A DNA stretch of 64,000 bases, taken from NCBI GenBank assembly GCA_019459485.1, contig JAIBEZ010000017.1, positions 1,498 through 65,497 on the forward strand, in the 5' to 3' direction. This DNA comes from Prolixibacteraceae bacterium (GTDB lineage: Bacteria > Bacteroidota > Bacteroidia > Bacteroidales > Prolixibacteraceae). The translations under genes and the position numbers were made by a program. The notes beneath the pieces are model-generated. The model made no database searches, was not told the DNA's origin, and was given only the letters and a program-made list of their open reading frames with translations. Positions 11,020 to 60,972 of the stretch are shown here, piece after piece; position 1 is the stretch's first letter, and every line of letters starts with the position of its first letter.

Positions 11020-11520
11020 ATGGCAAACTCAAAGAATCCTCTCATATTTGTTGTCGAAGACAATCAGATATACAACAAGTTGGTTGTAAGTTATTTGAAA
11101 ACCAATAAATTCACCAGAGTTGAATCCTTTTTATCAGGAGAAGATGTGCTTAAAAATATGCATCAAAATCCTGATATCATCATTCAGGATTACCTGCTGG
11201 AAGGAATGACCGGAATTGAGGTTTTAATTAAGGCAAAGAAGACCAATCCAAATGTAGAGTTTATCTTTTTGTCGGGACAGGACAGTATTGACATTGCTAT
11301 TAACAGCATGAAATATGGCGCTTACGATTATATTGTTAAAGATCAGATGGCTCTTCAGAAAATGGTGAACAAAATACACAAGATCAATTCGGTTACCGAA
11401 CTTGTGACATCAAACAAGCGCTACAAAGTTGGGGTGATCTTGTTTTTTGTCGGACTTGCCTTGCTGGTTGTTATTACATTGTTTTTGGCAATCAAGTACC
11501 CGCAAGTATTTGGAATGTAA
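11020..11520 (+). CDS. Response regulator receiver domain with C-terminal transmembrane helix
   Basis: VVEDN, IIQDY (phospho-Asp), FLSG, YIVKD; hydrophobic tail GVILFFVGLALLVVITLFLAI. Confidence 0.85.
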   Translation: MANSKNPLIFVVEDNQIYNKLVVSYLKTNKFTRVESFLSGEDVLKNMHQNPDIIIQDYLLEGMTGIEVLIKAKKTNPNVEFIFLSGQDSIDIAINSMKYGAYDYIVKDQMALQKMVNKIHKINSVTELVTSNKRYKVGVILFFVGLALLVVITLFLAIKYPQVFGM

Positions 11521-29535: not shown

Positions 29536-30864
29536 TTACAAAACAATGGATTGGCCATTGTAAAAGTCAAGAATTTTTGTCCTGAAAATGTATTCGTATT
29601 TGGCCTGAAGCAAATCGCTCTGGGCATTGGTGAGGTTATTTTTTACCTGGTTGTATTCAACAGAATTGATCATTCCCACGTTGAATTTTTCTTCTGTATA
29701 ACGAAAAGCTTCCGTCGAAGAAACAACCGCTTTCTGGTTCGCAACATATCTTTTGAATGATGCAAGTGCGTTGGTGTAGGCTTGCTCAATGTCTTTCCTG
29801 AGTAAATTTTTGGTGCTTTGTAATTGCAGTTCCGTATTTTCAACCTGAATTTGTGCATTGCTCACCCCGGTTTGTGCCTGATAACGGTTAAAAATCGGTA
29901 TGTTGAGTGATGCTCCAAAGCCATAGCGCTGATTACCTTTAAACTGATCTTTAAGTGAAGCCGTTGGATAATCGAATAAGTTTTGATAGAAGTTATTATA
30001 ATTACCGCCGAATGATAGTGTGGGCATCAGGTTTCCTTTCGCAATTTCCAGTTGTTTACGTGCACTCTCAAGTTTAAACTCGGCGCCTTTTACAGCCGGC
30101 CTGATTTGCACCGCATTTTTAAATACATCCATCGAATTCAACATGGTCATGTTGGCACTAATTTCAGGAAGTACCGGTTTTTCGATTTTAAAACTTTCGG
30201 AAGAGGGCAATTCAAGAAACTGGTACAAGCTGAGATAGGCCAGTTGAAGCCTGTTTTGAGCATTTACAACATTCAATTCTTCACGGGCATATTGCGCTTC
30301 TATTTCAAGCAAACTTCCTTTTGCCAGGCTTCCGGCTTCAACCAGTTTACCAGTGCGGTCGATCTGAAGCTGGGTTATTTTCAGGAGGTCTTCTGTAACG
30401 ATCAGCAATTCATCGGCAAAAAGTATTTCAAGGTAAGATGCAGCAATGTTGAGCATGATATCATCTTTTGCCTTTTGCATTTCTTCCAGACTGGCACGCA
30501 AATCCATCTCTGCCATTTTTATGGAATTTTTAAGTGTAAATCCATTCCAAACAGTAACATTCGAGCTTAGATTTCCAGAGGTTGAATTTGAATTGATATC
30601 CAGATAGGTATTATCCGGTCCAAGTGATCTTCCAAAACTCATGTTGTTCTGAAATCCTGCATTCAGGTTTGGCAGGCGGTTATACTTTGCCTGTTGGTGC
30701 TGATTGTTGTAATATTCTGAATTCAGAGCCTGCTGTTTGATCTGGATGTTGTTTTCAAGCGCGTAATCAATACATTTCTGTAACGACCATGTTTGCTGGG
30801 CCTGCGCACCCGTAAAAACAACCAGCATGATAGCTGCGGCAATGAGGCTGTACATTCGTTTCAT
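29536..30864 (-). CDS. TolC family outer-membrane efflux protein
   Basis: WSLQKCIDYALENN, LPNLNAG, two OEP repeats, YNVG...LLQAKYEY. Confidence 0.92.
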   Translation of the reverse strand: MKRMYSLIAAAIMLVVFTGAQAQQTWSLQKCIDYALENNIQIKQQALNSEYYNNQHQQAKYNRLPNLNAGFQNNMSFGRSLGPDNTYLDINSNSTSGNLSSNVTVWNGFTLKNSIKMAEMDLRASLEEMQKAKDDIMLNIAASYLEILFADELLIVTEDLLKITQLQIDRTGKLVEAGSLAKGSLLEIEAQYAREELNVVNAQNRLQLAYLSLYQFLELPSSESFKIEKPVLPEISANMTMLNSMDVFKNAVQIRPAVKGAEFKLESARKQLEIAKGNLMPTLSFGGNYNNFYQNLFDYPTASLKDQFKGNQRYGFGASLNIPIFNRYQAQTGVSNAQIQVENTELQLQSTKNLLRKDIEQAYTNALASFKRYVANQKAVVSSTEAFRYTEEKFNVGMINSVEYNQVKNNLTNAQSDLLQAKYEYIFRTKILDFYNGQSIVL

Positions 30865-30969
30865 ATTTTATAGTGTTTGTTTTTTTTATTTCCTGATACC
30901 TTTCCGTCCGATGAACCAGTTTCTTTAAATAGCATGATTCCGCGGACGGTTTCTCTTTTTTTATTCGTT

Positions 30970-31058
30970 ACCCCAGGGCTTCGTTCGTTTCTCACTTGCC
31001 GTTCGGCTGAGCTCACGCCGAAGCCCTGGGTTATTGATATATCACCCTTTCAGGGTGA
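30970..31058. repeat. REP-like composite palindrome
   Basis: CCCAGGGCTTCG/CGAAGCCCTGGG arms, inner TTCGGC-TGAGCTCA-CGCCGAA, then GGTTATT and TCACCCT/AGGGTGA hairpin. Confidence 0.65.
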
Positions 31059-31155
31059 GGAATTATTCCATTCAACTGTTTTCTATAGTCTTCAGTCCAT
31101 TCTATCAGATAAGTTTTTTAAACCTGAAACTTGGAACTTGAAACCTGGAACTTCT

Positions 31156-32280
31156 TTATGCTTTTTTCTTTTCTTCTTCCTTCACTTTCTTCGGATCAAT
31201 CTTTTCGCCTTTTACCTTATCGGTCTTGGCCAGCCCTTCAGTCACTTCGATGTTGATTCCGTCGGAAATTCCGGTTTTTACCATTCGTTTTTCGAATACC
31301 TGCGGAGTCATTGTTTCCACTTCAACAAACGACGAGTCTTTTTCAAACTTCAGTAAGCCTTCAGGAATAACCAACACGCTGTCTTTCTTTTCGAGAACGA
31401 TGTTTGCGTTGGCGCTGTACCCGGCCCTAATAAACTGATCTTCCTTCAGAACTACATTTGCTTTTATTTCAAACTGAATGGCGCCATTCTCTTCTTTACC
31501 TTTTGGGGCAATGTATTCGAGTATTGCTCCGAATTTATCTTTTTCAATCGCACCAATTTCAAGTTCGATGTTCATTCCTTCCTTGATTTTGCCGACTTCA
31601 GTTTCATCCACTTTTCCTTTGAAAATCATGTCCTGCATATCGGCCACGGTACAGATGGTGGTTCCGTTGTTAAAGGTATTCGATTGAATGACCGAGTTTC
31701 CTTCTTTGATCGGAACATCCAGCACCATTCCGTTTACTGTTGAACGAACAAGCGTATTAGTAGCCGTTGATGCCCTTTTTGTTACACCGTTTCTAATTAA
31801 TTCCAGATTATTTTCAGCTGCCGATAATTCCTCCTTTGCCGCATCGTAGCTAACTTTGGCATTTTTGTATTCATTGTACGAAATTACTTTCTGATCGTAC
31901 AATTTTTGCTGACGGTCGTAATCGATTTTTGAATCGTCGAAACTCAATTGCGCACGGTTGAGGCGGGTTTCAGCATTGTTCAGGTTTACCATATCAGGAA
32001 TAATCTTGATTTTGGCAATCACCTGGTCTTTCTTTACAAAGTCGCCGGCAACAATGTACAATTCGTCAATAATTCCTGAAACCTGGGGCACAATATCGAT
32101 TTCTTTGCGCGGAACAACCGAGCCTGTAGCAACGGTTTTGCGGATAACATTCGATACAAACGGGCTTTTTGTCTCGAATACTTCAGGTACTTTTTTTGAT
32201 TTGGTGTAGAGAAAGTAGATCGTTCCTCCGAAAATCCCCACAAGGATTACAATTCCTAAGATTCTAAAAATTTTTTTCAT
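31156..32280 (-). CDS. Periplasmic adaptor (MacA-like membrane fusion protein)
   Basis: N-terminal TM, VATGSVVP..PQVSGII, VDETEVGKIKEG; start at MKKIFRILG. Confidence 0.9.
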   Translation of the reverse strand: MKKIFRILGIVILVGIFGGTIYFLYTKSKKVPEVFETKSPFVSNVIRKTVATGSVVPRKEIDIVPQVSGIIDELYIVAGDFVKKDQVIAKIKIIPDMVNLNNAETRLNRAQLSFDDSKIDYDRQQKLYDQKVISYNEYKNAKVSYDAAKEELSAAENNLELIRNGVTKRASTATNTLVRSTVNGMVLDVPIKEGNSVIQSNTFNNGTTICTVADMQDMIFKGKVDETEVGKIKEGMNIELEIGAIEKDKFGAILEYIAPKGKEENGAIQFEIKANVVLKEDQFIRAGYSANANIVLEKKDSVLVIPEGLLKFEKDSSFVEVETMTPQVFEKRMVKTGISDGINIEVTEGLAKTDKVKGEKIDPKKVKEEEKKKA

Positions 32281-32360
32281 GGTTTTGTTTTTATATGTTT
32301 CTGTTTTTCTGTTTTTCAAAAATTACAAGCTAATTCGAAATCTATAATTGTTAATTGCCA

Positions 32361-33623
32361 TTACCCTTCGTCACGAATGGCATCAATTGGCTTTATGCTA
32401 ACTGCTCTTTTTGCCGGTATCAGCCCGGCGATTATTCCGGCAACAACCAAAACAGCCAGTGCCGATAGTGCCATCGTGAGGTTTATCTCCGGATTCCGAA
32501 AGAATAATTCGTCACCACCTTTCAGCAATATTTGGTTTAGTATTTCGAGTACGCCAACTCCCAGCGACAAACCTATGTAACCGGCCATTACAGTCAGGAA
32601 TACACTTTCGGCAACAATGTGTTTAATAACTGTTGCCGGAGTGGCACCAATTGCCCGCTGTATCCCGATTTCCTGGGTTCGTTCCTTGATAATTACCAGC
32701 ATGATGTTGCTCACACCAATTACCCCGGCCAGAAGTGTTCCGATTCCAACAATCCATGTCAGACCCTGAATGCCCAGGAATAATGCGCTGAATTTGACGA
32801 ATTCTTTTTCGATGTTGAAGGACCCAATGGCCTGTTGGTCTTCAGGGGCAATTTTATGGCGGTCTTTTAGCAAGGTTTTTAGTTTTTCTTCCAGATCGCT
32901 TACTTTGGTTCCGGGTTTTGATGTTACTGAGAAAAAATATACCCGGTTACCGAAATTATATGCTTTCCGCATGGTTGTAAACGGGATAATGATGGTTTCT
33001 TCTTTTTTGCCACCACCAATATTAATCCTCGTTTCAGCATGAATAACACCCACCACCTGAAAATAAACACCGCTAATTTTCAGGTATTGTCCTATCGGGT
33101 TTTCATCTTTGTCAAACATAACTTCAGCAACACGTTCGCCAATGTTGCAGACTTTTCGTTCCTGAAGCAAGTCAATTTCGTTGATCAATCGACCCTGAGC
33201 CGGAGTCCAGCGATCGATTTTGAAATAGTCGGGATAATCGCCAAACACATTAAATGCACCGGTACGTTCGCCGCGAATGGTATTATTGCCTGTTTGGTTA
33301 TTGCCAAACAATCGGGGCGACAGATATTCTACTTCTTTCACATTGTCGCGGATATAATCGATATCGCTTGTTTCGTAGTTCCAGCGACGGCCCCGTTGAA
33401 ATCCTTCATAAGGCACGCTGGTTCGTTCGGTCCAGAAGAAGGCCGAGTTGGTTGCAAATGCCTTCACTCCGTCAAGTACGCCATTTTCGAGCGCTTTCCC
33501 TGCCCCCGACATGATGACGAGCATGAAAATTCCCCAGAAGACGCCGAAGGCTGTCATAAAACTGCGCAGTCGATTTTTTTTCAGTGCGCTGACTATTTCT
33601 CTCCAAAGGTCTAAATCAAACAT
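32361..33623 (-). CDS. ABC transporter permease (MacB/FtsX type)
   Basis: RSFMTAFGVFWGIF, KERTQEIGIQRAIGA, IPAKRA..PIDAIRDE. Confidence 0.92.
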   Translation of the reverse strand: MFDLDLWREIVSALKKNRLRSFMTAFGVFWGIFMLVIMSGAGKALENGVLDGVKAFATNSAFFWTERTSVPYEGFQRGRRWNYETSDIDYIRDNVKEVEYLSPRLFGNNQTGNNTIRGERTGAFNVFGDYPDYFKIDRWTPAQGRLINEIDLLQERKVCNIGERVAEVMFDKDENPIGQYLKISGVYFQVVGVIHAETRINIGGGKKEETIIIPFTTMRKAYNFGNRVYFFSVTSKPGTKVSDLEEKLKTLLKDRHKIAPEDQQAIGSFNIEKEFVKFSALFLGIQGLTWIVGIGTLLAGVIGVSNIMLVIIKERTQEIGIQRAIGATPATVIKHIVAESVFLTVMAGYIGLSLGVGVLEILNQILLKGGDELFFRNPEINLTMALSALAVLVVAGIIAGLIPAKRAVSIKPIDAIRDEG

Positions 33624-33633
33624 GGCTTTAGTT

Positions 33634-34884
33634 TTATTCGTCGCGCAGGGCAACTATCGGTTTAATACTGGCAGCTCTTTTTGCCGGAATGTAACCCGCA
33701 AACGCACCTGCAATGATGAGCAGCAAAGTGGAATATACGGCAATGTTAATGTCAACAGTAGGGTTCATAAATATGGTTTCGCTCTGGTCGGTAGCCGGTA
33801 CTGCTGATTGCATCATAAAATAGTTGATCATTTCCATCAACCCTGTTCCTAAAACCAGGCCGATGTAACCGGCGATGGTGGTTATCATGATCGATTCAAG
33901 CAAAATCAGGCCAATTACTGACGACGGACTTGCACCGATGGCTTTTCGGATTCCAATTTCTTTGGTGCGTTCTTTTACGACAATCAGCATAATATTGCTG
34001 ACACCCACAATTCCGGCAATCAAAGTACCAATCCCAATGATCCAGATGAAAATTTTGATGGCCTGGAATATTTTCATGGTTTGGATATAATTTTCCAGCT
34101 TGTTATACAATCCAATAGCGCCTTCATCTTTGGGGTCAAATTTATGTTTCTTGCCCAGTGCTGTTCTGATTTGTTCTTCAATAGCCTGGCTTTCTTCAAG
34201 GGTCGAAGCATTTATGGTAAGGGCCAGATTATGAATTTTGTTTGAACCATTAAAAATCATTTGTGCAGTTGAAAGCGGCATGTAGGCATTCCGGTTCCGG
34301 GTTGATCCCGGTTCCGAGCAAATTCCTACAACTTTAAAAGGAACCATATTTATATTTACATACTCGCCCAATGCTGTGGAATCCTTAAAAAGAGCAGTCT
34401 TAATATCAGTGCCGATGACCACTATTTTTCGGTTCTGGAGTATATCAATCTGATTAATGAAACGGCCTTCATTCAGGATAAGATTTTCAACATCTCTTAA
34501 AGCGGGTTGACAGGTTATTGTGGTATATTCTCCCGATTCTTTTCCGTAAGAATACCGGGTGTTTCCCATAAAATACCGGCCTGACGATGCGCCGACTCCC
34601 GAAACTTTTGACACAATATCCTGATCCTGGTTCTGAAAACTGATTGGTCTTCCGGTTTTCATCCCTTCATAAGCAATGGTGGTTTCTCCATTCCAAATCC
34701 ACATGGCGTTTACTGCATCGTTCATAAAGTTTGCAGCTACACCGTTGCTCAAACCGTTTCCGGAACCCAGTAAAATCATCAGCATAAAAATTCCCCAGGC
34801 GACAGAAAATCCGGTGAGGAATGTCCGCATTTTATTTTTTTTGATAGTGGCAAGAATTTCCTGCCAAATGTCAATGTCAAACAT
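33634..34884 (-). CDS. ABC transporter permease (MacB/FtsX type)
   Basis: RTFLTGFSVAWGIF, KERTKEIGIRKAIGA. Confidence 0.92.
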   Translation of the reverse strand: MFDIDIWQEILATIKKNKMRTFLTGFSVAWGIFMLMILLGSGNGLSNGVAANFMNDAVNAMWIWNGETTIAYEGMKTGRPISFQNQDQDIVSKVSGVGASSGRYFMGNTRYSYGKESGEYTTITCQPALRDVENLILNEGRFINQIDILQNRKIVVIGTDIKTALFKDSTALGEYVNINMVPFKVVGICSEPGSTRNRNAYMPLSTAQMIFNGSNKIHNLALTINASTLEESQAIEEQIRTALGKKHKFDPKDEGAIGLYNKLENYIQTMKIFQAIKIFIWIIGIGTLIAGIVGVSNIMLIVVKERTKEIGIRKAIGASPSSVIGLILLESIMITTIAGYIGLVLGTGLMEMINYFMMQSAVPATDQSETIFMNPTVDINIAVYSTLLLIIAGAFAGYIPAKRAASIKPIVALRDE

Positions 34885-34894
34885 GGCTTCAGGA

Positions 34895-35620
34895 TTAAGC
34901 GGTTTCGAGTCCGTGGATGTATTCTTTCTGGAACTGTTTTAGTTCGCCGTTGCGGATAATTTCGTGAATCCGTCCGTCGTTCAACCTGATGATCTGACTC
35001 GTCATGGCAGCAATGTCGTGTTCATGGGTAACAATGATTACGGTTATCCCGTCATCGTTAATTTCTCGCAGGATGTCCATTACTTCATAAGAGTTTGCTG
35101 AATCCAACGCTCCGGTAGGTTCGTCAGCCAGAATTATTTTTGGTTGCGAAATCAAGGCACGTGCAATGGCTACGCGTTGTTTTTGTCCTCCCGACATTTC
35201 GTTCGGCATGTGGTTCGCCCATTCTTTTAAACCTAATTTATCGAGGTATTCCAATGCAATCAGATTACGCTTTTTCCTTGGAACTCCCTTATAATAGAGG
35301 GGAAGCGCCACATTTTCCATCGCGTTTTTAAACGAAATCAGGTTGAACGACTGAAATACGAAACCGACCATTTCGTTTCTAAGCTTGGCGGCTTTTTTTT
35401 CGCTCATGTTCGCAATAAGATTGCCTGACAAATGGTAAGTACCGTTGTCATAATTGTCGAGCATCCCCAAAATGTTCAAAAGGGTTGACTTCCCTGAACC
35501 AGAGGAACCCATGATGGAAACAAAGTCGCCCTGTTCTATATGGAGGTCGATACCTTTCAGAACATGGAGACTACTGCTTCCCATCTCATAGGATTTGTGA
35601 ATGTTGTTTAATCTGATCAT
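34895..35620 (-). CDS. ABC transporter ATP-binding protein (MacB/LolD type)
   Basis: Walker A GSSGSGKS, MSGGQKQR signature, ILADEPTGALD; start at MIRLNNIH. Confidence 0.95.
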   Translation of the reverse strand: MIRLNNIHKSYEMGSSSLHVLKGIDLHIEQGDFVSIMGSSGSGKSTLLNILGMLDNYDNGTYHLSGNLIANMSEKKAAKLRNEMVGFVFQSFNLISFKNAMENVALPLYYKGVPRKKRNLIALEYLDKLGLKEWANHMPNEMSGGQKQRVAIARALISQPKIILADEPTGALDSANSYEVMDILREINDDGITVIIVTHEHDIAAMTSQIIRLNDGRIHEIIRNGELKQFQKEYIHGLETA

Positions 35621-35822
35621 GGCATTGTTTTCTGTTAGTTTTCTGTTCAAAATTCGGTAATAATGGTTTTTCGATCTCATTTATTTCGATGAATCGTCGG
35701 TTTCGATCTGTAAAACGGTTAAAAAGTCAGTTTTAACGGAATAAACACGCACAAAACACCGGTAAATTAAAATTGCTGACCATTCTGTTTTCTGTTTCTG
35801 AATTTTCTTTACACCGAAGTAT

Positions 35823-40601: not shown

Positions 40602-41243
40602 TTAAAACTCAAGTCCGCCAAAGAATTCAGGAACATGAAAGCTGGGCTTTTCAGTTTTTATTTTGGTCCATGAAATGAAATGAGGAACAGATAGTTCGTC
40701 GCCGCATTTGTAAAAGTTTCCACGCATTTTCTTTCCCTGTATCAGTTCCAGGTTATGCTTAAAAAATACATTCCAAGGAATCGCAATTGTAATTTGCCAT
40801 TCGGTGGTTTCTTTTTGTTCCGGGAAAGTTGATTCACCCAAACAGGAAATTCTGCGGATTGTAGCAATTTGCTTATCTGTTGCATGAATTGCCGGCTCGC
40901 CATTTTTCCTGAAGCCAAGCAAAATCGTTCCAATACAGTTTATTTCCAGGTTGTAGTATTCGTCATTTCCTTCAGGGGAAAGAAAAAACTCGACACAACT
41001 GTCGGTCCAAACCCGCCCGTTACTTTTTGCAACTTCAGCTTTTACCGACTGTTCGATCACCTGATACTTCAGAAACAGTTCATTTTCGTTGTATGCAATT
41101 TGAACCGAAACTTCTGGTTTATAGGGGAATTCATTCCAGTTCACCATTTCGAGCTGAAGAGGTTGAATTTCAAGATCTAGTGTTTCGGTAACCAGTTCCA
41201 AAGGTGGATTGGAAAAACCGGGTAATATTTCTGGTACTTTCAT
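40602..41243 (-). CDS. CBM9-like (DOMON-like) carbohydrate-binding protein
   Basis: VWTDSCVEFF, YYNLEINCIGT, GNFYKCGD, FHVPEFFG; start at MKVPEIL. Confidence 0.8.
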   Translation of the reverse strand: MKVPEILPGFSNPPLELVTETLDLEIQPLQLEMVNWNEFPYKPEVSVQIAYNENELFLKYQVIEQSVKAEVAKSNGRVWTDSCVEFFLSPEGNDEYYNLEINCIGTILLGFRKNGEPAIHATDKQIATIRRISCLGESTFPEQKETTEWQITIAIPWNVFFKHNLELIQGKKMRGNFYKCGDELSVPHFISWTKIKTEKPSFHVPEFFGGLEF

Positions 41244-41310
41244 TGTCTTAAATTTGTTGTCAGTATTTTCAATATTTATGTTTTGATAGTTTTCTGGAAG
41301 AGGACTTAAA

Positions 41311-42405
41311 TCAGGCCAGCTTAGCAGCAACAGCGCGCACAATCCTGCACATTTCATCATATTGATCCTCCATACTTGTTAATAGTTTATACTGTGCAAG
41401 GGTGCGCTGATAATTGTGCTCCGGATGTTTGATTTTGTAATATTTGTCGCCGTCGATATAATCCATCAAAAATCGAAGCACCTGTTCATAGGTTATATAT
41501 TTGGCCGAAAATGCGAGGTATTCAAGTTCTTTTTCGTTCAGGAAACCAATCGTTTCTGAAAGATATCCCTGGGTAAAACCTTCGAAAATCCGGATATCGG
41601 ACGATACATTGTTCAGGTCAACGTCATCTTCCTCGCCTGAATTGGTATAGGAGCGCATCGCATCACCAAAATCATTCAGGCAGGTACTGTTCAGAACCGT
41701 GTCGAGGTCGATCACACAAAGCACTTCGCCATTTTGATCGAATAAAATGTTGTTTATTTTGGTGTCGTTGTGAGTAACACGGGTCGGAATTTCGCCGTTT
41801 TCAACCAGTTTCCAGAAATTGAGCATTTCTTCTCGACGGCTTTCAACCCAGTCAATTTCTTTACCAAGTTTTGCTTTTCGTCCAACCGGATCGGCAGCCA
41901 GAACTTTGTCCCATTGCCCAAAACGGTAGCGGATGTTGTGGAATCCGGGCAAAATATCGGTCAGTGGTTCGTTCAAATCAGCCACCATCGACTGGAATTT
42001 ACCGATTCCTTTTCCGCCCTGAAAAGCCAGTTCAGGAGTTTTAGCAGCCTGATAGGTAATGGTATTGGCAATAAAAATGCAAGCCGCCCAAAATTCGTCT
42101 TCTTCATCCTTAAAATAAAGTTTGCCATCGGTTGCAGGAACTACTGTCATCACTTCGCGCAAAGGATCACCGTTCCGGGTAATCACTATCTCCTTCATGT
42201 GAGTAGTAACTTTCTGAATATTTTCCATCATTGCCGGAACATTGGTGAAAATGCGCTTGTTTTTCCGCTGCAAAAGATAATCAGGAGTACTTTTTTCGAG
42301 GGTGCGAATGATAAAGGTATCGTTGATAAATCCTTCACCCATCTGTTCTACCTTTTCAACTTTTCCATCAAGTTGAAAACTGGCCGCTATTTGTTCAAGG
42401 TTCAT
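41311..42405 (-). CDS. Aminoglycoside-phosphotransferase-fold sugar kinase (NahK-like)
   Basis: GFINDT, RVTHNDTKINNIL, VIDLDT, DFGD. Confidence 0.85.
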   Translation of the reverse strand: MNLEQIAASFQLDGKVEKVEQMGEGFINDTFIIRTLEKSTPDYLLQRKNKRIFTNVPAMMENIQKVTTHMKEIVITRNGDPLREVMTVVPATDGKLYFKDEEDEFWAACIFIANTITYQAAKTPELAFQGGKGIGKFQSMVADLNEPLTDILPGFHNIRYRFGQWDKVLAADPVGRKAKLGKEIDWVESRREEMLNFWKLVENGEIPTRVTHNDTKINNILFDQNGEVLCVIDLDTVLNSTCLNDFGDAMRSYTNSGEEDDVDLNNVSSDIRIFEGFTQGYLSETIGFLNEKELEYLAFSAKYITYEQVLRFLMDYIDGDKYYKIKHPEHNYQRTLAQYKLLTSMEDQYDEMCRIVRAVAAKLA

Positions 42406-42431
42406 AAATTAAAATTTAGCTTTTGGAGTTC

Positions 42432-42439
42432 CAAAGGTA
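42432..42439 (-). promoter_or_regulatory. Primary-sigma -7 element for the kinase gene
   Basis: TACCTTTG on the minus strand. Confidence 0.55.
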
Positions 42440-42566
42440 TGTTTCATTTAAATGTTAAAACAAATAAATTGCTCATCTTTTGATCGATTTGTGATTTATT
42501 GCGGATTCAACCTTTTGCAATGCTTTTCTTTTTCCCTTCCAGGCATTGCTGTCCTTGTATTTTTAT

Positions 42567-42574
42567 TAATTTTG
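42567..42574 (+). promoter_or_regulatory. Primary-sigma -7 element for the cytochrome operon
   Basis: TAATTTTG 43 nt upstream of the start. Confidence 0.5.
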
Positions 42575-42616
42575 GACGACCTAATTTGAATTTAATAACA
42601 ACAAACCAAACCCTCT

Positions 42617-44146
42617 ATGCTGAAGAAGACAGGAGAATTTCTCCGCAAACGAATATTTTTCCTTTTATTTATTTCGTTTGCAATCGGAATTTTAGCTGCC
42701 GTTACTGGCAATAAAGCTGTAGAATATACTTCAACCGACGAATTTTGTGCTTCATGCCACGTTCATCCGCATGTATTTGAATCATGGAAACTTTCTACCC
42801 ATTACGATAATAAAGGTGGTATTCAGGTTCATTGTGTCGATTGCCATCTTCCGCCCAAAGGAGAAGGTTATCTTTATCAAAAAGCAAGGTTAGGAATCAA
42901 GGATATTTACGGAGTTCTGTTCAAAGATTCGGCGGATTTCAACTGGGAAGCCAAACGTACAGTTGAAAAAGCACAACATTTCACCTTCAAAGCCTCGTGT
43001 GTGAAATGCCATGCCAACCTTTTCCCGTTAAAACTGAACAAGGAAGGACAAGACGCGCACCTTTATTATACCCAAAACGAAGCAACGCTCGAATGTATCA
43101 ATTGCCACCTGAACGTGGGTCATTACGATCCGAATGCCATCCACGCCAGTAATTCCGATTTTGGAAAAGGGTCAGGAGTAAATCAAGTGGTTTATACCGA
43201 AGCAACGAAAGTGGAAAAATTCGCCAATTTTACTGAATTGATCCCCGGATCGACCATTTCGTTCAGCATGATTGCCATTCCGGGCGGAAAATTCAAATTG
43301 GGAAGTCCGGAAAATGAGCCCTATCGCCGACCAGATGAAGGCCCGGTAAAAGAGGTTGAAATCAGTCCGTTCTACATGGCTGAGGTGGAAGTTACCTGGG
43401 ACGAATTTTTGGTTTTCTATAGCCAGACCGGAGGAGAAGGACGCACCACCGACATAAAAGCTGCGCCCGTTGCCGGAGAGGTTGATGCCATCAGCGGACC
43501 AACCCCACCATACGGTCAACCGGACCAGAACTGGGGAATGGGAAATCGCCCGGCGATTACAATGCGTTATGCCACTGCCGAAACATATTGTGAATGGCTG
43601 TCGCTTAAAACAGGCAAAAAATACCGGCTGCCTACTGAAGCTGAATGGGAATACGCCTGCCGAGCCGGATCACAAACTCCGTATTTCTTTGAAGGCGATC
43701 CGAAAAAATACTCAAAAGACCGTTTGATGAATAAAATATTTGGCGCCGATACCACCAACATTGACCGATACGTTATTTATTCAGGAAACAGCATGGCCAA
43801 AACACAAAAGCCGGATGCAGTAAAACCGAACCCGTTTGGTCTGAGAAATATGCTCGGAAATGTTGCTGAATTTTGTGCCGACTGGTATGCTCCGGATGCC
43901 TATTCGGCATTGAATGATGGTGTTAAAGATCCAAAAGGCCCTGCGTCAGGAACAGAACGTGTGATTCGCGGAGGCTCGTTTAAAAGTGAACCGACTGAGG
44001 TTCGCAGCGCTGCCCGTGATTTTACACAAGACGAAACATGGATGAGAACCGATCCGCAGATACCAAAAAGTATTTGGTGGTATTCTGATTGTAACATGGT
44101 TGGATTCCGTGTTGTTTGTGAACTGGATGAAACTACCGGCAAATAA
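42617..44146 (+). CDS. NapC/NirT-type tetraheme cytochrome c fused to an FGE/SUMF1-like domain
   Basis: N-terminal TM, YTSTDEFCASCH plus CVDCH, CVKCH, CINCH; then IPGGKFKLGS, EVTWDEF, YRLPTEAEWEYACRAG, NMLGNVAE, RGGS. Confidence 0.88.
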   Translation: MLKKTGEFLRKRIFFLLFISFAIGILAAVTGNKAVEYTSTDEFCASCHVHPHVFESWKLSTHYDNKGGIQVHCVDCHLPPKGEGYLYQKARLGIKDIYGVLFKDSADFNWEAKRTVEKAQHFTFKASCVKCHANLFPLKLNKEGQDAHLYYTQNEATLECINCHLNVGHYDPNAIHASNSDFGKGSGVNQVVYTEATKVEKFANFTELIPGSTISFSMIAIPGGKFKLGSPENEPYRRPDEGPVKEVEISPFYMAEVEVTWDEFLVFYSQTGGEGRTTDIKAAPVAGEVDAISGPTPPYGQPDQNWGMGNRPAITMRYATAETYCEWLSLKTGKKYRLPTEAEWEYACRAGSQTPYFFEGDPKKYSKDRLMNKIFGADTTNIDRYVIYSGNSMAKTQKPDAVKPNPFGLRNMLGNVAEFCADWYAPDAYSALNDGVKDPKGPASGTERVIRGGSFKSEPTEVRSAARDFTQDETWMRTDPQIPKSIWWYSDCNMVGFRVVCELDETTGK

Positions 44147-44194
44147 ATAGTAAAATTTATAAACCAAATTGAATATTATAAAACTAAAGGAACC

Positions 44195-45547
44195 ATGAGT
44201 GAATCAAATTTTTCGAGAAGGAAATTCCTGGCAAATGCTGCCGCTATAAGCGCAGTGGGTGTCATTGGTGTTAATGCTTTGAGTTCATGTGCAGGCCCTA
44301 AAAAACCTGAAGTAGTATTAAATCTGCCACCTCTTTTGGAACTGGCACCAGATGGCGCTCCCCTGAAAGTTGGTATTATTGGCTGTGGTGGCCGTGGATC
44401 GGGCGCCATGATCGACTTCCTGAATGCTGGTCCAAACCTGAGCGTTCATGCGCTTGGCGATACCTTTCTGGACAATATCACCGCCTGCCGTGAAAAGTTG
44501 AAAAATGAAAAAAACATGGAAGTTGCCGATGAAAATGTATTTGTTGGTTTCGATGCTTATGAGAAAGTACTTGACTCTGGTGTTGACGTGGTAATTCTGG
44601 CTACTCCTCCTCATTTCCGTCCAATGCATTTCGAAGCGGCTGTTCAGGCACGCAAACATATTTTCATGGAAAAACCGATTGCTGTAGATCCGGTTGGTAT
44701 CCGCTCGATCATGGCTTCAGCAAAAAAAGCTGAACCACTCGGTCTTAAAATTGTAACCGGAACGCAACGCCGTCACCAGCTTGATTATGTTGAAATTTAC
44801 AAACAGGTGATGAATGGTGCAATTGGCGATATTGTTTCGGCAAATTGCTACTGGAATCAGAATCAGTTGTGGTACCGTAATCCAAAAGCTGAATGGTCGG
44901 AAATGGAATACATGATCCGCGACTGGGTAAACTGGTTGTGGTTGTCGGGCGATCACATTGTTGAGCAGCACGTTCACAATATTGATGTAATTACCTGGTT
45001 TACCGGAAAACATCCGACCAAAGCGGTTGGTTTTGGTTCCCGTCAGCGTCGTGTAACCGGCGATCAATACGATAATTTCAGTGTTGATTTTGTTTATGAT
45101 AACGGAATGCACATGCACAGTATGTGTCGTCAGATCAACGGAACTGCAAACAATGTTTCCGAATTTATCATGGGAACCAATGGTTCTTCAAACTGTAAAG
45201 ACAAAATATGGGATGCAAAGGGCGTAGAAAAATTTGCATACGCATATCCGCTTGATGATAAAGGACAACCGATGAAGAGTGTAAAAGTTAGTCCTTACGT
45301 TCAGGAACACATTGACCTGGTAACCTGTATCCGCCAAAACATTCCTGTAAACGAAGCAGAGCAGACGGCCATTTCGAACATGACTGCCATTATGGGCCGC
45401 GTCTCGGCTTACACCGGAAAAGAAGTTACATGGGACGAAATGATGAACTCTGACATGAAGCTCGGCCCAACAACTTACATCATGGGTTCGGTTGGAATCG
45501 TTGGAACTGCTCAGGTAGCAATTCCGGGAGAAGAGAATAAAGCTTAG
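44195..45547 (+). CDS. Gfo/Idh/MocA oxidoreductase, Tat-exported lipoprotein
   Basis: SRRKFL Tat motif, LSSC lipobox, GIIGCGGRG, ATPPHFR, MEKP. Confidence 0.9.
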   Translation: MSESNFSRRKFLANAAAISAVGVIGVNALSSCAGPKKPEVVLNLPPLLELAPDGAPLKVGIIGCGGRGSGAMIDFLNAGPNLSVHALGDTFLDNITACREKLKNEKNMEVADENVFVGFDAYEKVLDSGVDVVILATPPHFRPMHFEAAVQARKHIFMEKPIAVDPVGIRSIMASAKKAEPLGLKIVTGTQRRHQLDYVEIYKQVMNGAIGDIVSANCYWNQNQLWYRNPKAEWSEMEYMIRDWVNWLWLSGDHIVEQHVHNIDVITWFTGKHPTKAVGFGSRQRRVTGDQYDNFSVDFVYDNGMHMHSMCRQINGTANNVSEFIMGTNGSSNCKDKIWDAKGVEKFAYAYPLDDKGQPMKSVKVSPYVQEHIDLVTCIRQNIPVNEAEQTAISNMTAIMGRVSAYTGKEVTWDEMMNSDMKLGPTTYIMGSVGIVGTAQVAIPGEENKA

Positions 45548-45548
45548 T

Positions 45549-45618
45549 GATTGCAGATTAACGATTTTTGATTGAAGATTTTAAATCGTTAATCAACAAT
45601 CGTTAATCAGTAATCGTT
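45549..45618. repeat. 7-nt periodic inverted micro-array (GATT x5 then AATC x5)
   Basis: GATT at 45549/56/63/70/77 and AATC at 45584/91/98/45605/12, all in one 7-nt register. Confidence 0.85.
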
Positions 45619-45631
45619 AATTTTTTAAGAT

Positions 45632-46543
45632 ATGACAATCAACAGAAGAAATTTTCTGGGAACGGCTGTTTCCGGTGCTGCATTGGCTGCATCGGGCGGC
45701 CTTTTCTCTTCTTTCAGGAGCGAATCGGAATCTCAGGCTGGTAAAAAGAATTCCACAAAATTGAAAATATCGTGTCAGGAAGGTGTTGCCCCAGGCAAGT
45801 CGCTGGCCGAAAAACTCGATTTTATGGAATCTCTCGATATTGTCGGGCTTGAGATTTGGGGTGGAGGCCTTGAAAAAAGAGTAAGTGAAATTCAACAGGC
45901 TTTGCAGAACCGCAACATGAAAGTGAGTGCGATTTGTGCAGGCTTTGATGGCTGGCTCATTGCCGATGATCCTTCTATTCAGAAAAAATGCATGGATTCG
46001 TTGAAGGTGATCATTGGTGCGGCTGGCGAACTGGGTTCTACCGGTGTCATATTTGTTCCGGCATTCAACAACCAGAAATCGCTGCCAGACAAAGAAGCAC
46101 GCGAACTTTTGATTGGCCAGATGAAAGAACTGGGCGATTATGCACTTCAACGCAATACCAGAATATTACTCGAGCCTTTGAACCGTGAAGAGTGCTATTT
46201 CTGCCGTCAGGTGGCTGATGGCGCAGCCATCGTTCGTGATGTCAATTCTGCAGGTGCCGCCGTGATGGGCGATTTTTGGCACATGACCTGGGAAGAAACC
46301 AATGACCGTGCGGCTTTTCTTGCAGCAGGCGATTATTTGCGGCATGTGCACATTGCCAGTCGCAAAAGACGCAAAATGCCCGGAGAAGACGGCGAAGCAG
46401 ATAATTACATCAACGGTTTCCGCGGACTGAAGGAAATCAATTATCAGGATTATGTGAGCTTTGAATGTGGTTCGGTGGGAGACGCGAAAGATACTTTGCC
46501 AGCCGCAGTAAAACTGATGCGCGAACAATGGAAGAAAGCGTGA
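45632..46543 (+). CDS. Tat-exported xylose-isomerase-like TIM-barrel protein (sugar isomerase/epimerase/lyase)
   Basis: NRRNFL Tat motif; metal ligands in LEPLNR, GDFWHM, HVHIAS, SFEC. Confidence 0.88.
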   Translation: MTINRRNFLGTAVSGAALAASGGLFSSFRSESESQAGKKNSTKLKISCQEGVAPGKSLAEKLDFMESLDIVGLEIWGGGLEKRVSEIQQALQNRNMKVSAICAGFDGWLIADDPSIQKKCMDSLKVIIGAAGELGSTGVIFVPAFNNQKSLPDKEARELLIGQMKELGDYALQRNTRILLEPLNREECYFCRQVADGAAIVRDVNSAGAAVMGDFWHMTWEETNDRAAFLAAGDYLRHVHIASRKRRKMPGEDGEADNYINGFRGLKEINYQDYVSFECGSVGDAKDTLPAAVKLMREQWKKA

Positions 46544-46604
46544 AAGGAAAGTGTTCAGTGGTCAGTCGCAGTTTTTAGTATTCAATTAAGGGCTGTATAG
46601 AATT

Positions 46605-46644
46605 TAAAACCCCCGGTTTCGAATGAAGCCGGGGGTTTTATTTT
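46605..46644. terminator. Intrinsic terminator
   Basis: TAAAACCCCCGGTTTC / GAAGCCGGGGGTTTTA plus T run. Confidence 0.8.
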
Positions 46645-46715
46645 GGTTTGAATTGATTTCAAATGGAATTTATGATATGAAAAAGAAAAACGAACAATAA
46701 AGAAATTGATATTTT

Positions 46716-47039
46716 TTATGCTTTTATAGTTCCTTTATACAATTGGCTGACAGGGAAGATTAAATCCCAATTTTCGCCCCAGACAAGATTTCCTGCTTCA
46801 ATTTTAAATTGTTTAAAAAGTTCGATCTCCTTGTATTTGTTGTGTTGTGGGTGTGGCCGTTTTTCAAGAAAATTGCCAAAATCAACGGTTTTAACGGAAT
46901 GGTCATTAAACTCGATTTCAATTTTATATCCATCAATATAACGAGCTTTTTCAACCTGAATTGGTTTCAGACCTATCTGATCTTCCGGGTTATTTTTTCG
47001 TTTTTTGGTTCTATTTTTAGTAGATAAAATTGCGTCCAT
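46716..47039 (-). CDS. DUF2442 family protein (putative antitoxin); start uncertain
   Basis: ARYIDGYKIEIEFND..VDF..FKQFKIEAGNLVW; homologous region seems to begin at CTG 46970. Confidence 0.75.
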   Translation of the reverse strand: MDAILSTKNRTKKRKNNPEDQIGLKPIQVEKARYIDGYKIEIEFNDHSVKTVDFGNFLEKRPHPQHNKYKEIELFKQFKIEAGNLVWGENWDLIFPVSQLYKGTIKA

Positions 47040-47278
47040 TTTTCAACGATTTTAAGATAATAAGCAAAAACAAATTTTTCAATATCCTTTCGGTAGGACG
47101 GAGGTATAGGTTTTGATCCAGTTGATCGCTTGAATTTAATGTTTACAAGCTTTCCTTCCGAAATTTCGAGTTCAATAACCGATTCGTATTCTCCATAACG
47201 CGCATGAACGTGTAAAGGTTTGTGGTCGTTGGAATAAAAGAAGAATATGAATCCTAAGTATTCAAAAATTTTTGGCAT
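46973..47278 (-). CDS. DUF4160 family protein (putative toxin)
   Basis: MPKIFEYLGFIFFFYSNDHKPLHVH; paired with DUF2442. Confidence 0.8.
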   Translation of the reverse strand: MPKIFEYLGFIFFFYSNDHKPLHVHARYGEYESVIELEISEGKLVNIKFKRSTGSKPIPPSYRKDIEKFVFAYYLKIVEKWTQFYLLKIEPKNEKITRKIR

Positions 47279-47345
47279 CTCATAGATTGGCTTTTGATGA
47301 AACAAATCTAGTCATTTTTTGAAGGATTTTTTGTTAGCTATTCTC

Positions 47346-55029: not shown

Positions 55030-55064
55030 AGCAGGGGGCAGATCATAGCACTCTGCCCCCTGCT
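55030..55064. terminator. 13-bp hairpin between convergent genes (terminator or REP)
   Basis: AGCAGGGGGCAGA / TCTGCCCCCTGCT. Confidence 0.65.
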
Positions 55065-57462
55065 ATTCGTACCTCAACACTTCTACCGGATTTTTCGATG
55101 CAGCCTTAAAACTTTGCCAGCTAACGGTGAGCAATGCAATTCCCAGAGTCAGCAAACCGGCCAGCGCAAAAATCCACCAGCTTAGGTCGGTTTTGTACGC
55201 AAAGTTTTCGAGCCAACGGTTCACCACGTACCAGGCAACAGGAATGGCGATTACAAATGCAATTACTACCCATTTTATGAAAGTCAGGTTGATTAAATGA
55301 ATAATCTGACCAATGTTTGCGCCGTTTACCTTTCTTAAACTGATTTCTTTTTTGCGTTTTTCGAGGTAAAACAAAATAAGGCCGTACAAGCCAATTGTGG
55401 CAATTCCGATAGAAAGCAAAGTCAGCCAAACGTACAATTTGCTGAACCGGCTGTCGGATTCGTACTGCCTGTTAAATTGCTCGTCGGCTAAAGCGAAATC
55501 GAAATTATCTTTCGGGTAGTGGCGTGTCCAGGTAGTTTGCAGCCTGCTCAGTGTTTCCTGTAAATTTTGCGTGTTTATCCTGACCGAAAAATAACCAAAC
55601 TCGCTTGGGAAACGGTTATTCCAGATGATCGGGTAAATGGCTTTGTGCAATCCTTCGTGATGAAAGTCGGCCACCACGCCTTCAATCTTCAGTGGAGTGG
55701 TGATATTTTCCTTCCTGAAAATTTCTTTGCCAACAGCTTCTTCAGGAGAACCGAAACCCAGCAGTTTCATGCTCGATTCGTTCAAAATAACACGGTTCAG
55801 ATTTTGTGCTTCGTTCTCGCTGAAATCGTTTCCTGCCAGCAATTTCAGCCCGTAAGTTTTAATAAAACCGCGACCGGCGTTGTTCTCCAGAATCTGGTTG
55901 TCGGGCGATTTTCCTTGCATAGGGTTATTAAATTCGCGGAATCCGAACCCCGGCTCCTGGCCTGGCACAAATTGGTTAAAAGTTACACCTTCAACACTGG
56001 TCTGACTTTGGAGATCGCTGCGAAAACCTTCGTAACGCTTCCGCTTGTTGCCATCGGCATTCAGCGATGCCGGTCCGGTCAATACCACCACATCATTCAG
56101 CGCCACGCCCAAATCTTTGTTTTTCATGAATGAGATTTGCTTGTAAACCACCAGTGTGCCGATCAGGAAAATGATTGAAAGCGCCATTTGTACAACCACC
56201 AGTCCGCTCTTTAGCTTTCCGCCTCCAACATGTTTCTGGTCGGGTAAAATTTTAATTCGTGTCAGCTCAATTCCATGGTACATTCCTGAAAAAAATATTC
56301 CTCCTGAAACAGTGAGTACAGAAATGAGAATAACATACCCGATCGGGATATGAGCCTGGTTAACCGGAATGTTAAAAACCGAAGCAACAGAATTCTGCAG
56401 AATAAAATAAAGCAGAAAAGAGATGACCAATGCGGCGATATTCAGAATAGAACTTTCGGCCAGAGATTGGTGCCAGAGATGAAAATCGGAAGCGCCGATT
56501 AATTTGCGAGTGCGAATTTGGACCGATCGCGACTGGGCGTGTGCCACCGAAAGGTTCACGTAATTGATCCAGGCGATGAAAAGGGTAATTACCGCAATTA
56601 CTATCAGGTTGATGAGCGACGAATAGTTTGTAATGGCGCCCATTTCGCCCTCTATTCCCTGAATAAAATGCAGTTTTTTAAGTGGTTGCAATGAATATTT
56701 TGCGTCGCGTTTGTCTTCGGCCAGAAAACCCATGTACGACTGTATGAAACTATTGATTTTGGTTGTCGTCAATTCCGGCGAACTTCCGTCTTTGAGTCTG
56801 ATGTAATTCCACCAGCCATTCCATCGCCAATCGCCCTCAGCGTTGATAGCGCCCATTTCGACCCAGGTTTTTACCGAAACAAAATACTGTGCCTGCAAAT
56901 GCGTGTTGGGTGGCAAATCCTTGAAAACGCCGGTTATTTCAATGGGCATTCCCTGGTTTACACCCATAATTTTGCCAATCGGATTTTCATTTCCGTAGAG
57001 TGCTTTGGCGCAGGTTGCCGAAATAACACCGGTTCGCGGCCTCGAATAATCGCCAATTCCCTCGATCATTTCAAGCGGAAAGACTTTTTCAAAATCTTCG
57101 GAAACCCACAATATATCCTGATTGGCAATGTTTCGGTCCTGATAACTCACCAGACATTTTTCGAAATAGGCCAATCCATTGGCTTCAATTTCGGGGATTT
57201 CACGTTTCATGGCAAAAAACAAAGCCCGTGGAGTTTTGGCCCCGTGATAAATGGACTGCCCTTCTTTTTCAACTTCCAGGTTGACACGGTAAACATTTTC
57301 TGATTTTTGAAAAAATGAGTCGTAAGAAAACTCAAATAAAATGTAGTGAACAGCAAATAAAAACGAGGTCAGTCCGGCAATCAGTCCGATCAGGTTGATA
57401 ACACTCATGTGTTTGTATTTCAACAAGCTTCGGAAGGCAGAGATGAAAATTATTCTTAGCAT
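55063..57462 (-). CDS. Large ABC permease (two FtsX/MacB units)
   Basis: INLIGLIAG, WINYVNL, KEISLRKVNGA, NPVEVLRYE. Confidence 0.9.
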   Translation of the reverse strand: MLRIIFISAFRSLLKYKHMSVINLIGLIAGLTSFLFAVHYILFEFSYDSFFQKSENVYRVNLEVEKEGQSIYHGAKTPRALFFAMKREIPEIEANGLAYFEKCLVSYQDRNIANQDILWVSEDFEKVFPLEMIEGIGDYSRPRTGVISATCAKALYGNENPIGKIMGVNQGMPIEITGVFKDLPPNTHLQAQYFVSVKTWVEMGAINAEGDWRWNGWWNYIRLKDGSSPELTTTKINSFIQSYMGFLAEDKRDAKYSLQPLKKLHFIQGIEGEMGAITNYSSLINLIVIAVITLFIAWINYVNLSVAHAQSRSVQIRTRKLIGASDFHLWHQSLAESSILNIAALVISFLLYFILQNSVASVFNIPVNQAHIPIGYVILISVLTVSGGIFFSGMYHGIELTRIKILPDQKHVGGGKLKSGLVVVQMALSIIFLIGTLVVYKQISFMKNKDLGVALNDVVVLTGPASLNADGNKRKRYEGFRSDLQSQTSVEGVTFNQFVPGQEPGFGFREFNNPMQGKSPDNQILENNAGRGFIKTYGLKLLAGNDFSENEAQNLNRVILNESSMKLLGFGSPEEAVGKEIFRKENITTPLKIEGVVADFHHEGLHKAIYPIIWNNRFPSEFGYFSVRINTQNLQETLSRLQTTWTRHYPKDNFDFALADEQFNRQYESDSRFSKLYVWLTLLSIGIATIGLYGLILFYLEKRKKEISLRKVNGANIGQIIHLINLTFIKWVVIAFVIAIPVAWYVVNRWLENFAYKTDLSWWIFALAGLLTLGIALLTVSWQSFKAASKNPVEVLRYE

Positions 57463-57506
57463 TGGTTTAGGTTTGAGTTTACTGCTATAAAGCTATAAAC
57501 TTTACC

Positions 57507-58427: not shown

Positions 58428-58536
58428 TTGTTGAGTTATTTAAAACAATCACAGGTAAAAGTAAGCTCAACATCACGCAAAATTTTTACATATTTCCTTT
58501 TAAAAATTACATAATTCACACATCAGTAAGTTCACA

Positions 58537-58564
58537 GTAGAGACAAGGCATGCCTTGTCTCTAC
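58537..58564. repeat. Perfect 28-bp GTAG-type REP palindrome
   Basis: GTAGAGACAAGGCATGCCTTGTCTCTAC. Confidence 0.88.
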
Positions 58565-60948: not shown

Positions 60949-60972
60949 GATTCCATTGTTTTACTTCATTTA

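Follow-up and report, generated by a model that had tools for sequence, protein, structure and literature searches.

A Tat-exported Gfo/Idh/MocA dehydrogenase and its cytochrome-fused FGE-like partner: a candidate flavin relay from periplasmic sugar oxidation to the respiratory chain

Introduction

What re-oxidises the nicotinamide cofactor of a dehydrogenase that has been exported to the periplasm? The question is raised by a locus in the window analysed here (the whole 64-kb stretch of DNA, 64,000 nucleotides of contig JAIBEZ010000017.1 from a Prolixibacteraceae bacterium), in which three plus-strand genes encode a tetrahaem cytochrome c fused to a domain with the fold of the formylglycine-generating enzyme (FGE), a Gfo/Idh/MocA-family dehydrogenase (hereafter Gfo) and a xylose-isomerase-like TIM barrel, the last two with twin-arginine translocation (Tat) motifs (Table 1). 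Bacteroidota, Planctomycetota and Verrucomicrobiota abound in periplasmic Gfo/Idh/MocA enzymes, which start the non-hydrolytic 3-keto breakdown of glycans. Among FAD and PQQ enzymes there are periplasmic sugar dehydrogenases that couple to cytochrome c, and both Tat-exported Gfo enzymes and clients of the flavin transferase ApbE are known. For BT2158, a Tat-exported Gfo of Bacteroides thetaiotaomicron, the electron acceptor was unknown and the authors proposed an unidentified second sugar (PMC8121099).

The reading preferred here, to which a probability of about 0.5 is assigned, is that the proteins of operon 42617-46543 make up a periplasmic dehydrogenase module linked to the respiratory chain, with a flavin mononucleotide (FMN) relay on the FGE-like domain. 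A preliminary description of the locus had proposed respiration-linked periplasmic sugar oxidation by a five-gene system that included two divergently transcribed genes, a kinase and a CBM9-like gene; it missed the loss of the FGE catalytic cysteines and the association of the FGE-like subfamily with ApbE, both of which bear on the relay proposed below.

The FGE-like protein and the dehydrogenase form a conserved pair

An alignment of the fusion protein served as query for a scan of GTDB, with one genome for each species, and the best 80 loci were kept, a sample from which the closest genera are missing; all open reading frames (ORFs) of the kept loci were then searched with the window proteins. 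An FGE-like gene and a close Gfo orthologue (150-626 bits) are adjacent, on the same strand and less than 400 nt apart, in at least 28 loci, a count that takes in the window and six loci from an exact-protein look-up. These loci belong to Bacteroidota (four classes), Planctomycetota, Verrucomicrobiota, Acidobacteriota and Gemmatimonadota, and the twin-arginine motif is kept in 26 of the 28 Gfo orthologues adjoining FGE-like genes. The conserved core is an FGE-like protein directly followed by a Tat-exported Gfo. Of the five-gene neighbourhood whose conservation had been put forward as a check, this pair held in five phyla and a Tat-exported TIM barrel in three, while the kinase and CBM9 genes did not.

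The domain found 5' of the FGE-like part is a NapC/NirT tetrahaem cytochrome in Bacteroidia, one KSB1 and one Acidobacteriota genome, and a monohaem PSCyt1 domain ("planctomycete cytochrome c") in Verrucomicrobiota (L014, L025) and Bryobacteraceae (L018, L027). In Flavobacteriia, Sphingobacteriia, Chitinophagia, Planctomycetota and Gemmatimonadota the FGE-like domain is preceded by a signal peptide only, and no consistent CXXCH-containing ORF that might encode a separate cytochrome c was found within 6 kb of these unfused pairs. Two unrelated cytochromes c have thus become fused independently to the same FGE-like domain. The two fusions, together with the tie to the same dehydrogenase, argue that the FGE-like domain lies in an electron path between dehydrogenase and haem, and they constitute the strongest sequence-only evidence in support of such electron transfer. 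Comparative evidence thus lends good support to respiration-linked periplasmic oxidation as first suggested for this locus.

L007, the Acidobacteriota locus that has a NapC-FGE fusion, is unusual in that its upstream ApbE gene (6735-7863) and downstream Gfo gene (9705-11123) are each split over several frames and the fusion protein has only three CXXCH motifs, features suggestive of assembly errors or of a decaying locus.

An FGE fold without the FGE active site

The window fusion protein is predicted to be anchored in the inner membrane by its N-terminal helix (residues 13-35). Its four CXXCH motifs, at C44, C73, C128 and C160, are invariant across 61 homologues, and the match to PF03264 (E 2.2e-31; 109 bits against a cut-off of 24) places the cytochrome in the NapC/NirT family, although it reaches none of the named NCBIfam equivalogs (TorC, 80 against 478 bits; NrfH, 73.5 against 134; napC_nirT, 69 against 311). 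The C-terminal FGE core is modelled by AlphaFold with pLDDT 80-93. In alignment with the Thermomonospora curvata FGE (6s07), Ser457 (43985-43987) stands in place of the first copper-binding cysteine ("rggsfkSe" versus "kggsflCh"), and the alignment stops at this serine; the second catalytic cysteine has no counterpart. Judged by this loss of the catalytic cysteines, the domain is not a formylglycine-generating enzyme, and FGE-like proteins of this kind should not be annotated as formylglycine-generating or non-haem iron enzymes. The best curated NCBIfam match of the domain is PvdO (E 2.7e-32; 112 bits against a cut-off of 500), followed by GldK (E 1.3e-27), and it also matches PorK structures (E 8e-9).

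The retained FGE fold invites the alternative that the complex is a sulfatase maturase, in which the FGE-like domain would bind the sulfatase motif, Gfo would oxidise its Ser or Cys to formylglycine and the electrons would reach quinone in a DsbB-like manner. The phyla concerned are generally rich in sulfatases, and in one relative (L088) a sulfatase gene lies two genes away. With the catalytic cysteines gone, sulfatase genes not consistently near the pair and the recurrent Tat-exported TIM sugar enzyme left without a role, such a maturase is most improbable.

Full-length homologues of the cytochrome-FGE protein number in the thousands, chiefly from Prolixibacteraceae and other Bacteroidia. 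A profile search of 1.84 billion representatives returned about four full-length fusion clusters (at 50% identity) within the top 150, a figure that says little on subfamily size as the top 150 is swamped by giant multi-repeat FGE proteins. The FGE-like superfamily as a whole comprises 167,167 representative clusters. Two of the giant proteins (P0361 and P0362), of 3008-4448 residues with 19-22 FGE-like repeats, outscore true fusion homologues.

ApbE association and a candidate flavinylation motif

Clustering of the genes that neighbour the pair brought out ApbE (Pfam PF02424, E 1e-64 to 1e-77), which is the periplasmic FAD:protein FMN transferase. Within the FGE-like subfamily, defined by a score of at least ~125 bits to the window FGE domain and numbering ~47 loci, a search of ORFs with an ApbE profile identified 14 loci of this best-80-based sample in which ApbE and the FGE-like gene are no more than 2.5 kb apart (L007, L009, L016, L017, L022, L024, L025, L026, L027, L028, L032, L034, L044 and L057). 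The usual order is FGE-like, Gfo, ApbE, at times followed by the TIM gene. L022 holds an FGE-like plus ApbE unit among unrelated neighbours and without Gfo, and L009 and L016 are similar; units of this type point to the FGE-like protein as the ApbE client.

The candidate attachment site is the DAISGPT segment of the window protein, whose D290, G294, P295 and T296 are invariant across the 61 homologues. The wider pattern D-[AG]-[IVL]-[ST]-x-[PA]-[ST]-x-x-Y occurs at one aligned position in all subfamily members, and the ~40 generic FGE-like loci in the scan lack the motif and have neither Gfo nor ApbE nearby. ApbE recognizes D-x-x-[S/T]-G-A-[S/T] (PMC12052999), which DAISGPT resembles in length and end residues, with Pro where the consensus has Ala. 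The consensus G-A-T end is found in DAIVGAT of L002 and DGITGAT of L004, the latter fitting the entire consensus. No flavinylation-like motif was seen in any Gfo orthologue, no second candidate in the FGE-like proteins beside ApbE, and no alternative motif in the neighbouring genes examined. Neither FGE-like nor Gfo proteins are mentioned in the two published surveys of flavinylated proteins or in one recent review.

From these comparisons we infer that the FGE-like domain carries covalent FMN and relays electrons from bound NAD(P)H to the haems and on to menaquinone. The generalization is more tentative and is given somewhat less than an even chance: the FGE fold would be a previously unrecognised class of ApbE-flavinylated protein, serving in at least five phyla as the dedicated acceptor of Tat-exported, NAD(P)-loaded Gfo enzymes and as relay to c-type cytochromes and quinone.

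The redox partnership might also be real with the FGE-like domain acting as a cofactor-free docking element or scaffold, as in PorK/GldK, and ApbE serving another client or role. FGE-fold proteins without catalytic residues are indeed structural lipoproteins in Bacteroidota, two of which, GldK and PorK, are among the matches given above, and the flavinylation-like motif is non-canonical. However, transfer of hydride from NAD(P)H to one-electron haems requires a converter, the FGE-like/ApbE unit of L022 offers ApbE no other plausible client, and neither the Gfo orthologues nor the neighbouring genes examined supply an alternative motif; a pure scaffold is therefore considered unlikely.

Some subfamily members differ in their surroundings. 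In a Flavobacteriaceae locus without a nearby Gfo (L016) a YceI-like gene (8960-9511) stands between the FGE-like and ApbE genes; YceI-like proteins are periplasmic polyisoprenoid- and quinone-binding proteins, and this one may be an alternative route to quinones. Two tandem motif-bearing FGE-like genes are present in Planctomycetota (Pirellulaceae and Fimbriiglobus; L020, 7770-10414, and L028, 1367-3651). A Pirellulaceae subgroup (L020, L022, L029, L031) has the motif DAITAPTELY and no adjacent Gfo, and may use a different partner enzyme.

Proposed electron path and its direction

In the flavin relay favoured here, Gfo would fold and take up NAD(P) in the cytoplasm before its export by Tat. 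Export in this folded, cofactor-bound form follows the precedent of Zymomonas glucose-fructose oxidoreductase (GFOR), which is reported to be Tat-exported with tightly bound NADP (cited in PMC8121099). In the periplasm Gfo would turn a hydroxyl of its substrate, a sugar- or cyclitol-like compound, into a ketone, and the FGE-like domain of its partner would re-oxidise the reduced, non-exchangeable nicotinamide. The hydride would be accepted by FMN attached covalently by ApbE to Thr296 of DAISGPT; the flavin would split this two-electron hydride into one-electron steps, which would pass via the four c haems of the NapC/NirT domain to menaquinone. The Tat-exported TIM barrel would then epimerise, isomerise or eliminate at the carbon beside the new keto group.

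The same complex might run in reverse, with the NapC/NirT domain oxidising menaquinol, the FGE-like domain conducting the electrons to the Gfo cofactor and Gfo reducing a periplasmic carbonyl such as a keto-sugar or reactive aldehyde, as a reductase or detoxification system. The best cytochrome matches, TorC, NrfH and NapC, are quinol dehydrogenases feeding periplasmic reductases, and the pair is set among housekeeping genes and not in a polysaccharide utilisation locus. Against this, textbook midpoint potentials make it thermodynamically favourable to oxidise a secondary alcohol with menaquinone, so that oxidation is the favoured direction, whereas reduction of NAD(P)+ or of a ketone from menaquinol is uphill. 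Lineages without the cytochrome retain the FGE-like-Gfo-ApbE unit, and the downstream keto-sugar TIM enzyme better suits an oxidation product. Reverse flow is thus judged improbable.

Several points weigh against the forward relay itself. NapC/NirT proteins normally oxidise quinol, opposite to the direction proposed. To our knowledge no FGE-fold protein binds a flavin. There is no ApbE gene in the window, and among the NapC-fused versions sampled only L007 has one nearby. Most subfamily members have Pro for the consensus Ala, the Gly position varies within the subfamily, and genuine FGE shares the DA[IV] part. An Ala-to-Val change already halves flavinylation (PMC12052999). In the AlphaFold model of the fusion, pLDDT is <50 in the cytochrome domain, in the motif loop (275-315) and over residues 474-493, which makes the model uninformative on the haem-flavin distance. 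A fold search with the Gfo model returned aldose-aldose oxidoreductase, inositol dehydrogenases, DgpA, GFOR and glucuronide 3-dehydrogenase, all at 13-20% identity, so that no substrate can be called. The RNA contigs described below are supportive of a single transcript and not proof of it, as assembled contigs can include DNA. Finally, the protein-protein interaction, flavinylation, direction of electron flow and substrate class are inferred, not shown.

The dehydrogenase and the TIM barrel

By its motifs the window Gfo is a predicted NAD(P)-dependent dehydrogenase and Tat-exported lipoprotein: the Rossmann GIIGCGGRG (from residue 60) and EKP (from residue 159) place it in the Gfo/Idh/MocA family, and NCBIfam TAT_signal is matched with 17.9 bits against 16.7. 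It falls outside the BT2158 glycoside 3-dehydrogenase family (NF058561), scoring 30.4 bits where the cut-off is 750. The 3-keto-glycoside route that had been suggested for the locus is accordingly an analogy and not an assignment.

The TIM barrel (PF01261, 114 bits) has as its closest structure PDB 3kws (E 2e-113), an uncharacterised "putative sugar isomerase", and as its closest characterised relatives YcjR, a 3-keto-D-glucoside 4-epimerase (6wn6, E 3e-23), and IolO, a 5-keto-L-gluconate epimerase (E 5e-28). It lies below all equivalog cut-offs (IolO, 98 against 300 bits; psicose epimerase, 69 against 300), and is probably a metal-dependent epimerase, isomerase or eliminase for keto-sugars. 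A close orthologue lies 3' of the FGE-like/Gfo pair in the distant Bacteroidales L005 and L006, and more divergent xylose-isomerase-like barrels lie beside the cluster in L002, L007, L023, L032, L034 and L036. All TIM genes adjoining the cluster, from Bacteroidota, Acidobacteriota and Gemmatimonadota, encode twin-arginine motifs. The TIM gene often accompanies the pair but is not obligatory, being absent beside it in Gaoshiqia and several other loci.

Gfo and TIM genes are separated by an 84-nt spacer with four exact copies of AATCGTTAAT, of which three are direct and spaced 14 nt and the fourth is inverted; together they make up an imperfect 43-nt hairpin. The rest of the window has no exact copy. 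In a related transcript this spacer carries a 7-nt GATTAAC insertion, and relatives L088 and L089 are without any spacer.

Relation to known systems

Zymomonas mobilis GFOR and B. thetaiotaomicron BT2158 are like the window Gfo in fold, Tat signal and periplasmic action on sugars (PMC8121099). GFOR, which is 13% identical, recycles its cofactor with a second sugar, whereas the window Gfo adjoins a gene for a dedicated cytochrome-fused partner. The logic of periplasmic sugar oxidation via a c haem to the respiratory chain is shared with the FAD-type glucoside 3-dehydrogenase LacABC (PMC8121099, PMC9007349); here, however, the catalytic subunit has an NAD(P) Rossmann fold in place of FAD or PQQ, the mediator has an FGE fold and the cytochrome is of the NapC/NirT type. 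With NapC, NirT, NrfH, CymA and TorC (TorC E 1.5e-22, NrfH E 1.7e-20) the window protein shares an N-terminal helix and four CXXCH motifs, and TorC is likewise fused to an extra C-terminal domain. It differs from that family in scoring far below the equivalog cut-offs, in its C-terminal FGE fold and in the proposed flow towards quinone; a C-terminal FGE fusion to NapC/NirT is not described in the literature searched.

ApbE clients such as NqrC, RnfG, NosR, PceC, FMN_bind and DUF2271 are likewise periplasmic, with ApbE beside its client in many genomes and a seven-residue Asp...Thr/Ser motif (PMC12052999), but the window domain differs from them in its FGE-like fold and in having Pro for Ala. 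PvdO and PorK/GldK share with it an FGE fold that has lost the catalytic cysteines, and PvdO also acts in a periplasmic oxidation; the window FGE-like protein has different gene partners and a cytochrome fusion that neither PvdO nor PorK has. In YcjS/YcjR, DgpA/DgpBC, IolG/IolE/IolO and BT2156-2159 a keto-sugar made by a dehydrogenase is likewise handed to a metal-dependent TIM enzyme acting at the neighbouring carbon. These known Gfo/TIM pairs are cytoplasmic or redox-neutral and without a cytochrome or flavin partner, and the window locus, for its part, is without a DUF1080 hydrolase. Neither the Gfo/FGE-like pairing nor the combination of an NAD(P) Rossmann enzyme, a motif-bearing FGE mediator and a fused NapC/NirT or PSCyt1 cytochrome was found in the literature searched, outside of which lie most subscription journals.

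If the flavin relay is correct, it would explain how exported Gfo enzymes turn over without a second sugar substrate, and part of the sugar oxidation in these phyla would conserve energy via the respiratory chain. The very large FGE-like superfamily would also gain a new cofactor role, and the flavinylated proteins a new fold. The genetically linked, cytochrome-fused and ApbE-associated partner makes the question of NAD(P)H re-oxidation directly testable.

Organization and transcription of the locus

The five genes, the Tat signals, the four haem motifs and the terminator at 46605 were all recovered where the preliminary description had placed them (Table 1).

Table 1. Features of the cytochrome-FGE/Gfo/TIM locus in window coordinates
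Feature	Position	Strand	Evidence or remark
CBM9_2-family gene	40602-41360	minus	Pfam PF16011 (CBM9_2), E 4.8e-72
NahK-like kinase gene	41311-42405	minus	Pfam APH (PF01636); PDB NahK match
TAnnTTTG, kinase side	42432-42439	minus	27 nt 5' of kinase ATG
TAnnTTTG, operon side, TAATTTTG, Bacteroidota -7-like promoter element	42567-42574	plus	43 nt 5' of cytochrome-FGE ATG
Cytochrome-FGE fusion gene, 509 aa	42617-44146	plus	PF03264 + PF03781
Predicted transmembrane helix, residues 13-35	42653-42721	plus	sequence; AlphaFold helix H13-38
Haem c motif CASCH	42746-42760	plus	CXXCH
Haem c motif CVDCH	42833-42847	plus	CXXCH
Haem c motif CVKCH	42998-43012	plus	CXXCH
Haem c motif CINCH	43094-43108	plus	CXXCH
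FGE-fold domain, residues 217-505	43265-44131	plus	PF03781, E 6.5e-43, 148 bits against cut-off 23
DAISGPT, D290-T296, candidate flavinylation motif (T296 proposed FMN acceptor)	43484-43504	plus	homologue alignment
Gfo/Idh/MocA gene, Tat lipoprotein, 450 aa	44195-45547	plus	PF01408, PF22725, PF02894
Gfo Tat motif SRRKFL	44213-44230	plus	
Gfo lipobox LSSC	44279-44290	plus	
Gfo Rossmann GIIGCGGRG	44372-44398	plus	
Gfo EKP	44669-44677	plus	
Gfo-TIM spacer repeats	45557-45621		four exact copies of AATCGTTAAT
Xylose-isomerase-like TIM barrel gene, 303 aa	45632-46543	plus	PF01261
TIM Tat motif RRNFL	45644-45658	plus	
Intrinsic terminator	46605-46640	plus	G+C-rich 16-bp stem, 8 G-C pairs, then T run

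The divergent spacer between the kinase and cytochrome-FGE genes is 211 nt and holds one TAnnTTTG element per direction. One copy per side had been noted and was found; as the element is not enriched across the window (61 occurrences against 68 expected), it is only weak evidence of a promoter.

The source organism or near-identical relatives were detected in four soil metatranscriptomes of a single study, in which assembled RNA contigs cover all three plus-strand genes. In run X12 the coverage bins start at 42510-42760 and coverage ends in the 46526-46776 bin, which holds the terminator; a single contig of this run (45294-45873) bridges the Gfo-TIM junction. In run X23 contigs 44056-44192, 44163-44220 and 44197-44294 tile from within the cytochrome-FGE gene, over its stop codon and into the Gfo gene. 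That the three plus-strand genes form one unit, as first suggested, is supported by these contigs over both junctions and by coverage stopping near the terminator. No RNA contig covers the kinase region (41506-42509) in any of the four metatranscriptomes, in all of which the operon is covered.

The kinase and CBM9 genes

The kinase lacks a signal peptide and matches the solved N-acetylhexosamine 1-kinases of Bifidobacterium (NahK, 4ocu/4wh1) over its full length (E 2.5e-65, residues 5-358), and by this similarity and its APH fold it is classed as a NahK-type anomeric N-acetylhexosamine kinase. On the five-gene proposal, glycoside or amino-sugar oxidation would be coupled to respiration with salvage of products by this kinase in the cytoplasm and some help from the CBM9-like protein. 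In its favour, the kinase is a good NahK homologue and the block is intact in relatives at 81-99% identity in the TIM or cytochrome protein, including those with a different flank past CBM9. The two genes are, however, confined to relatives sharing ~80% or more identity in the cytochrome or TIM protein (the neighbourhood comparison used a 99% identical relative in place of the window's own protein). At 65-72% identity the place directly upstream of the operon is taken by a ComF-like gene, and neither gene occurs within 8 kb in any of the distant loci sampled. Conservation within the close clade is uninformative because the flank downstream of the operon is syntenic there too. Together with the kinase's want of RNA contigs where the operon is expressed and the lack of a transporter, these findings make the five-gene system very unlikely: the kinase and CBM9 genes are a clade-specific insertion beside the operon and not components of it, and neither salvage by the kinase nor membership of the CBM9 gene could be upheld.

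In one relative (L084) the CBM9 gene is absent and a ComF-like gene follows the kinase. In the window the kinase and CBM9_2 ORFs overlap by 50 nt (41311-41360); the N-terminal sequence of the latter, MMKCAGLCALLLLSW, is hydrophobic, Met40 is another possible start, and in L088 a 214-aa form is annotated.

Other features of the window

The genes examined in the neighbourhood of the operon include no DUF1080 hydrolase, SusC/D pair or sugar transporter, in agreement with the earlier remark that the locus holds neither DUF1080 nor a transporter. The remaining large genes of the window are efflux systems of the MacB/FtsX type. Three tandem paralogues at 55063-63360 encode MacB_PCD/FtsX permeases of ~795-799 aa, and a separate complete MacB-type set at 29536-35680 has an ABC ATPase and two FtsX permeases together with an HlyD-like adaptor and an outer-membrane factor. 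Such systems are unusually dense here. Just past the terminator, on the minus strand at 46716-47305, a pair of short, overlapping ORFs (107 and 110 aa) resembles a two-gene cassette, and relative L084 has a HigB-like toxin pair at a comparable position.

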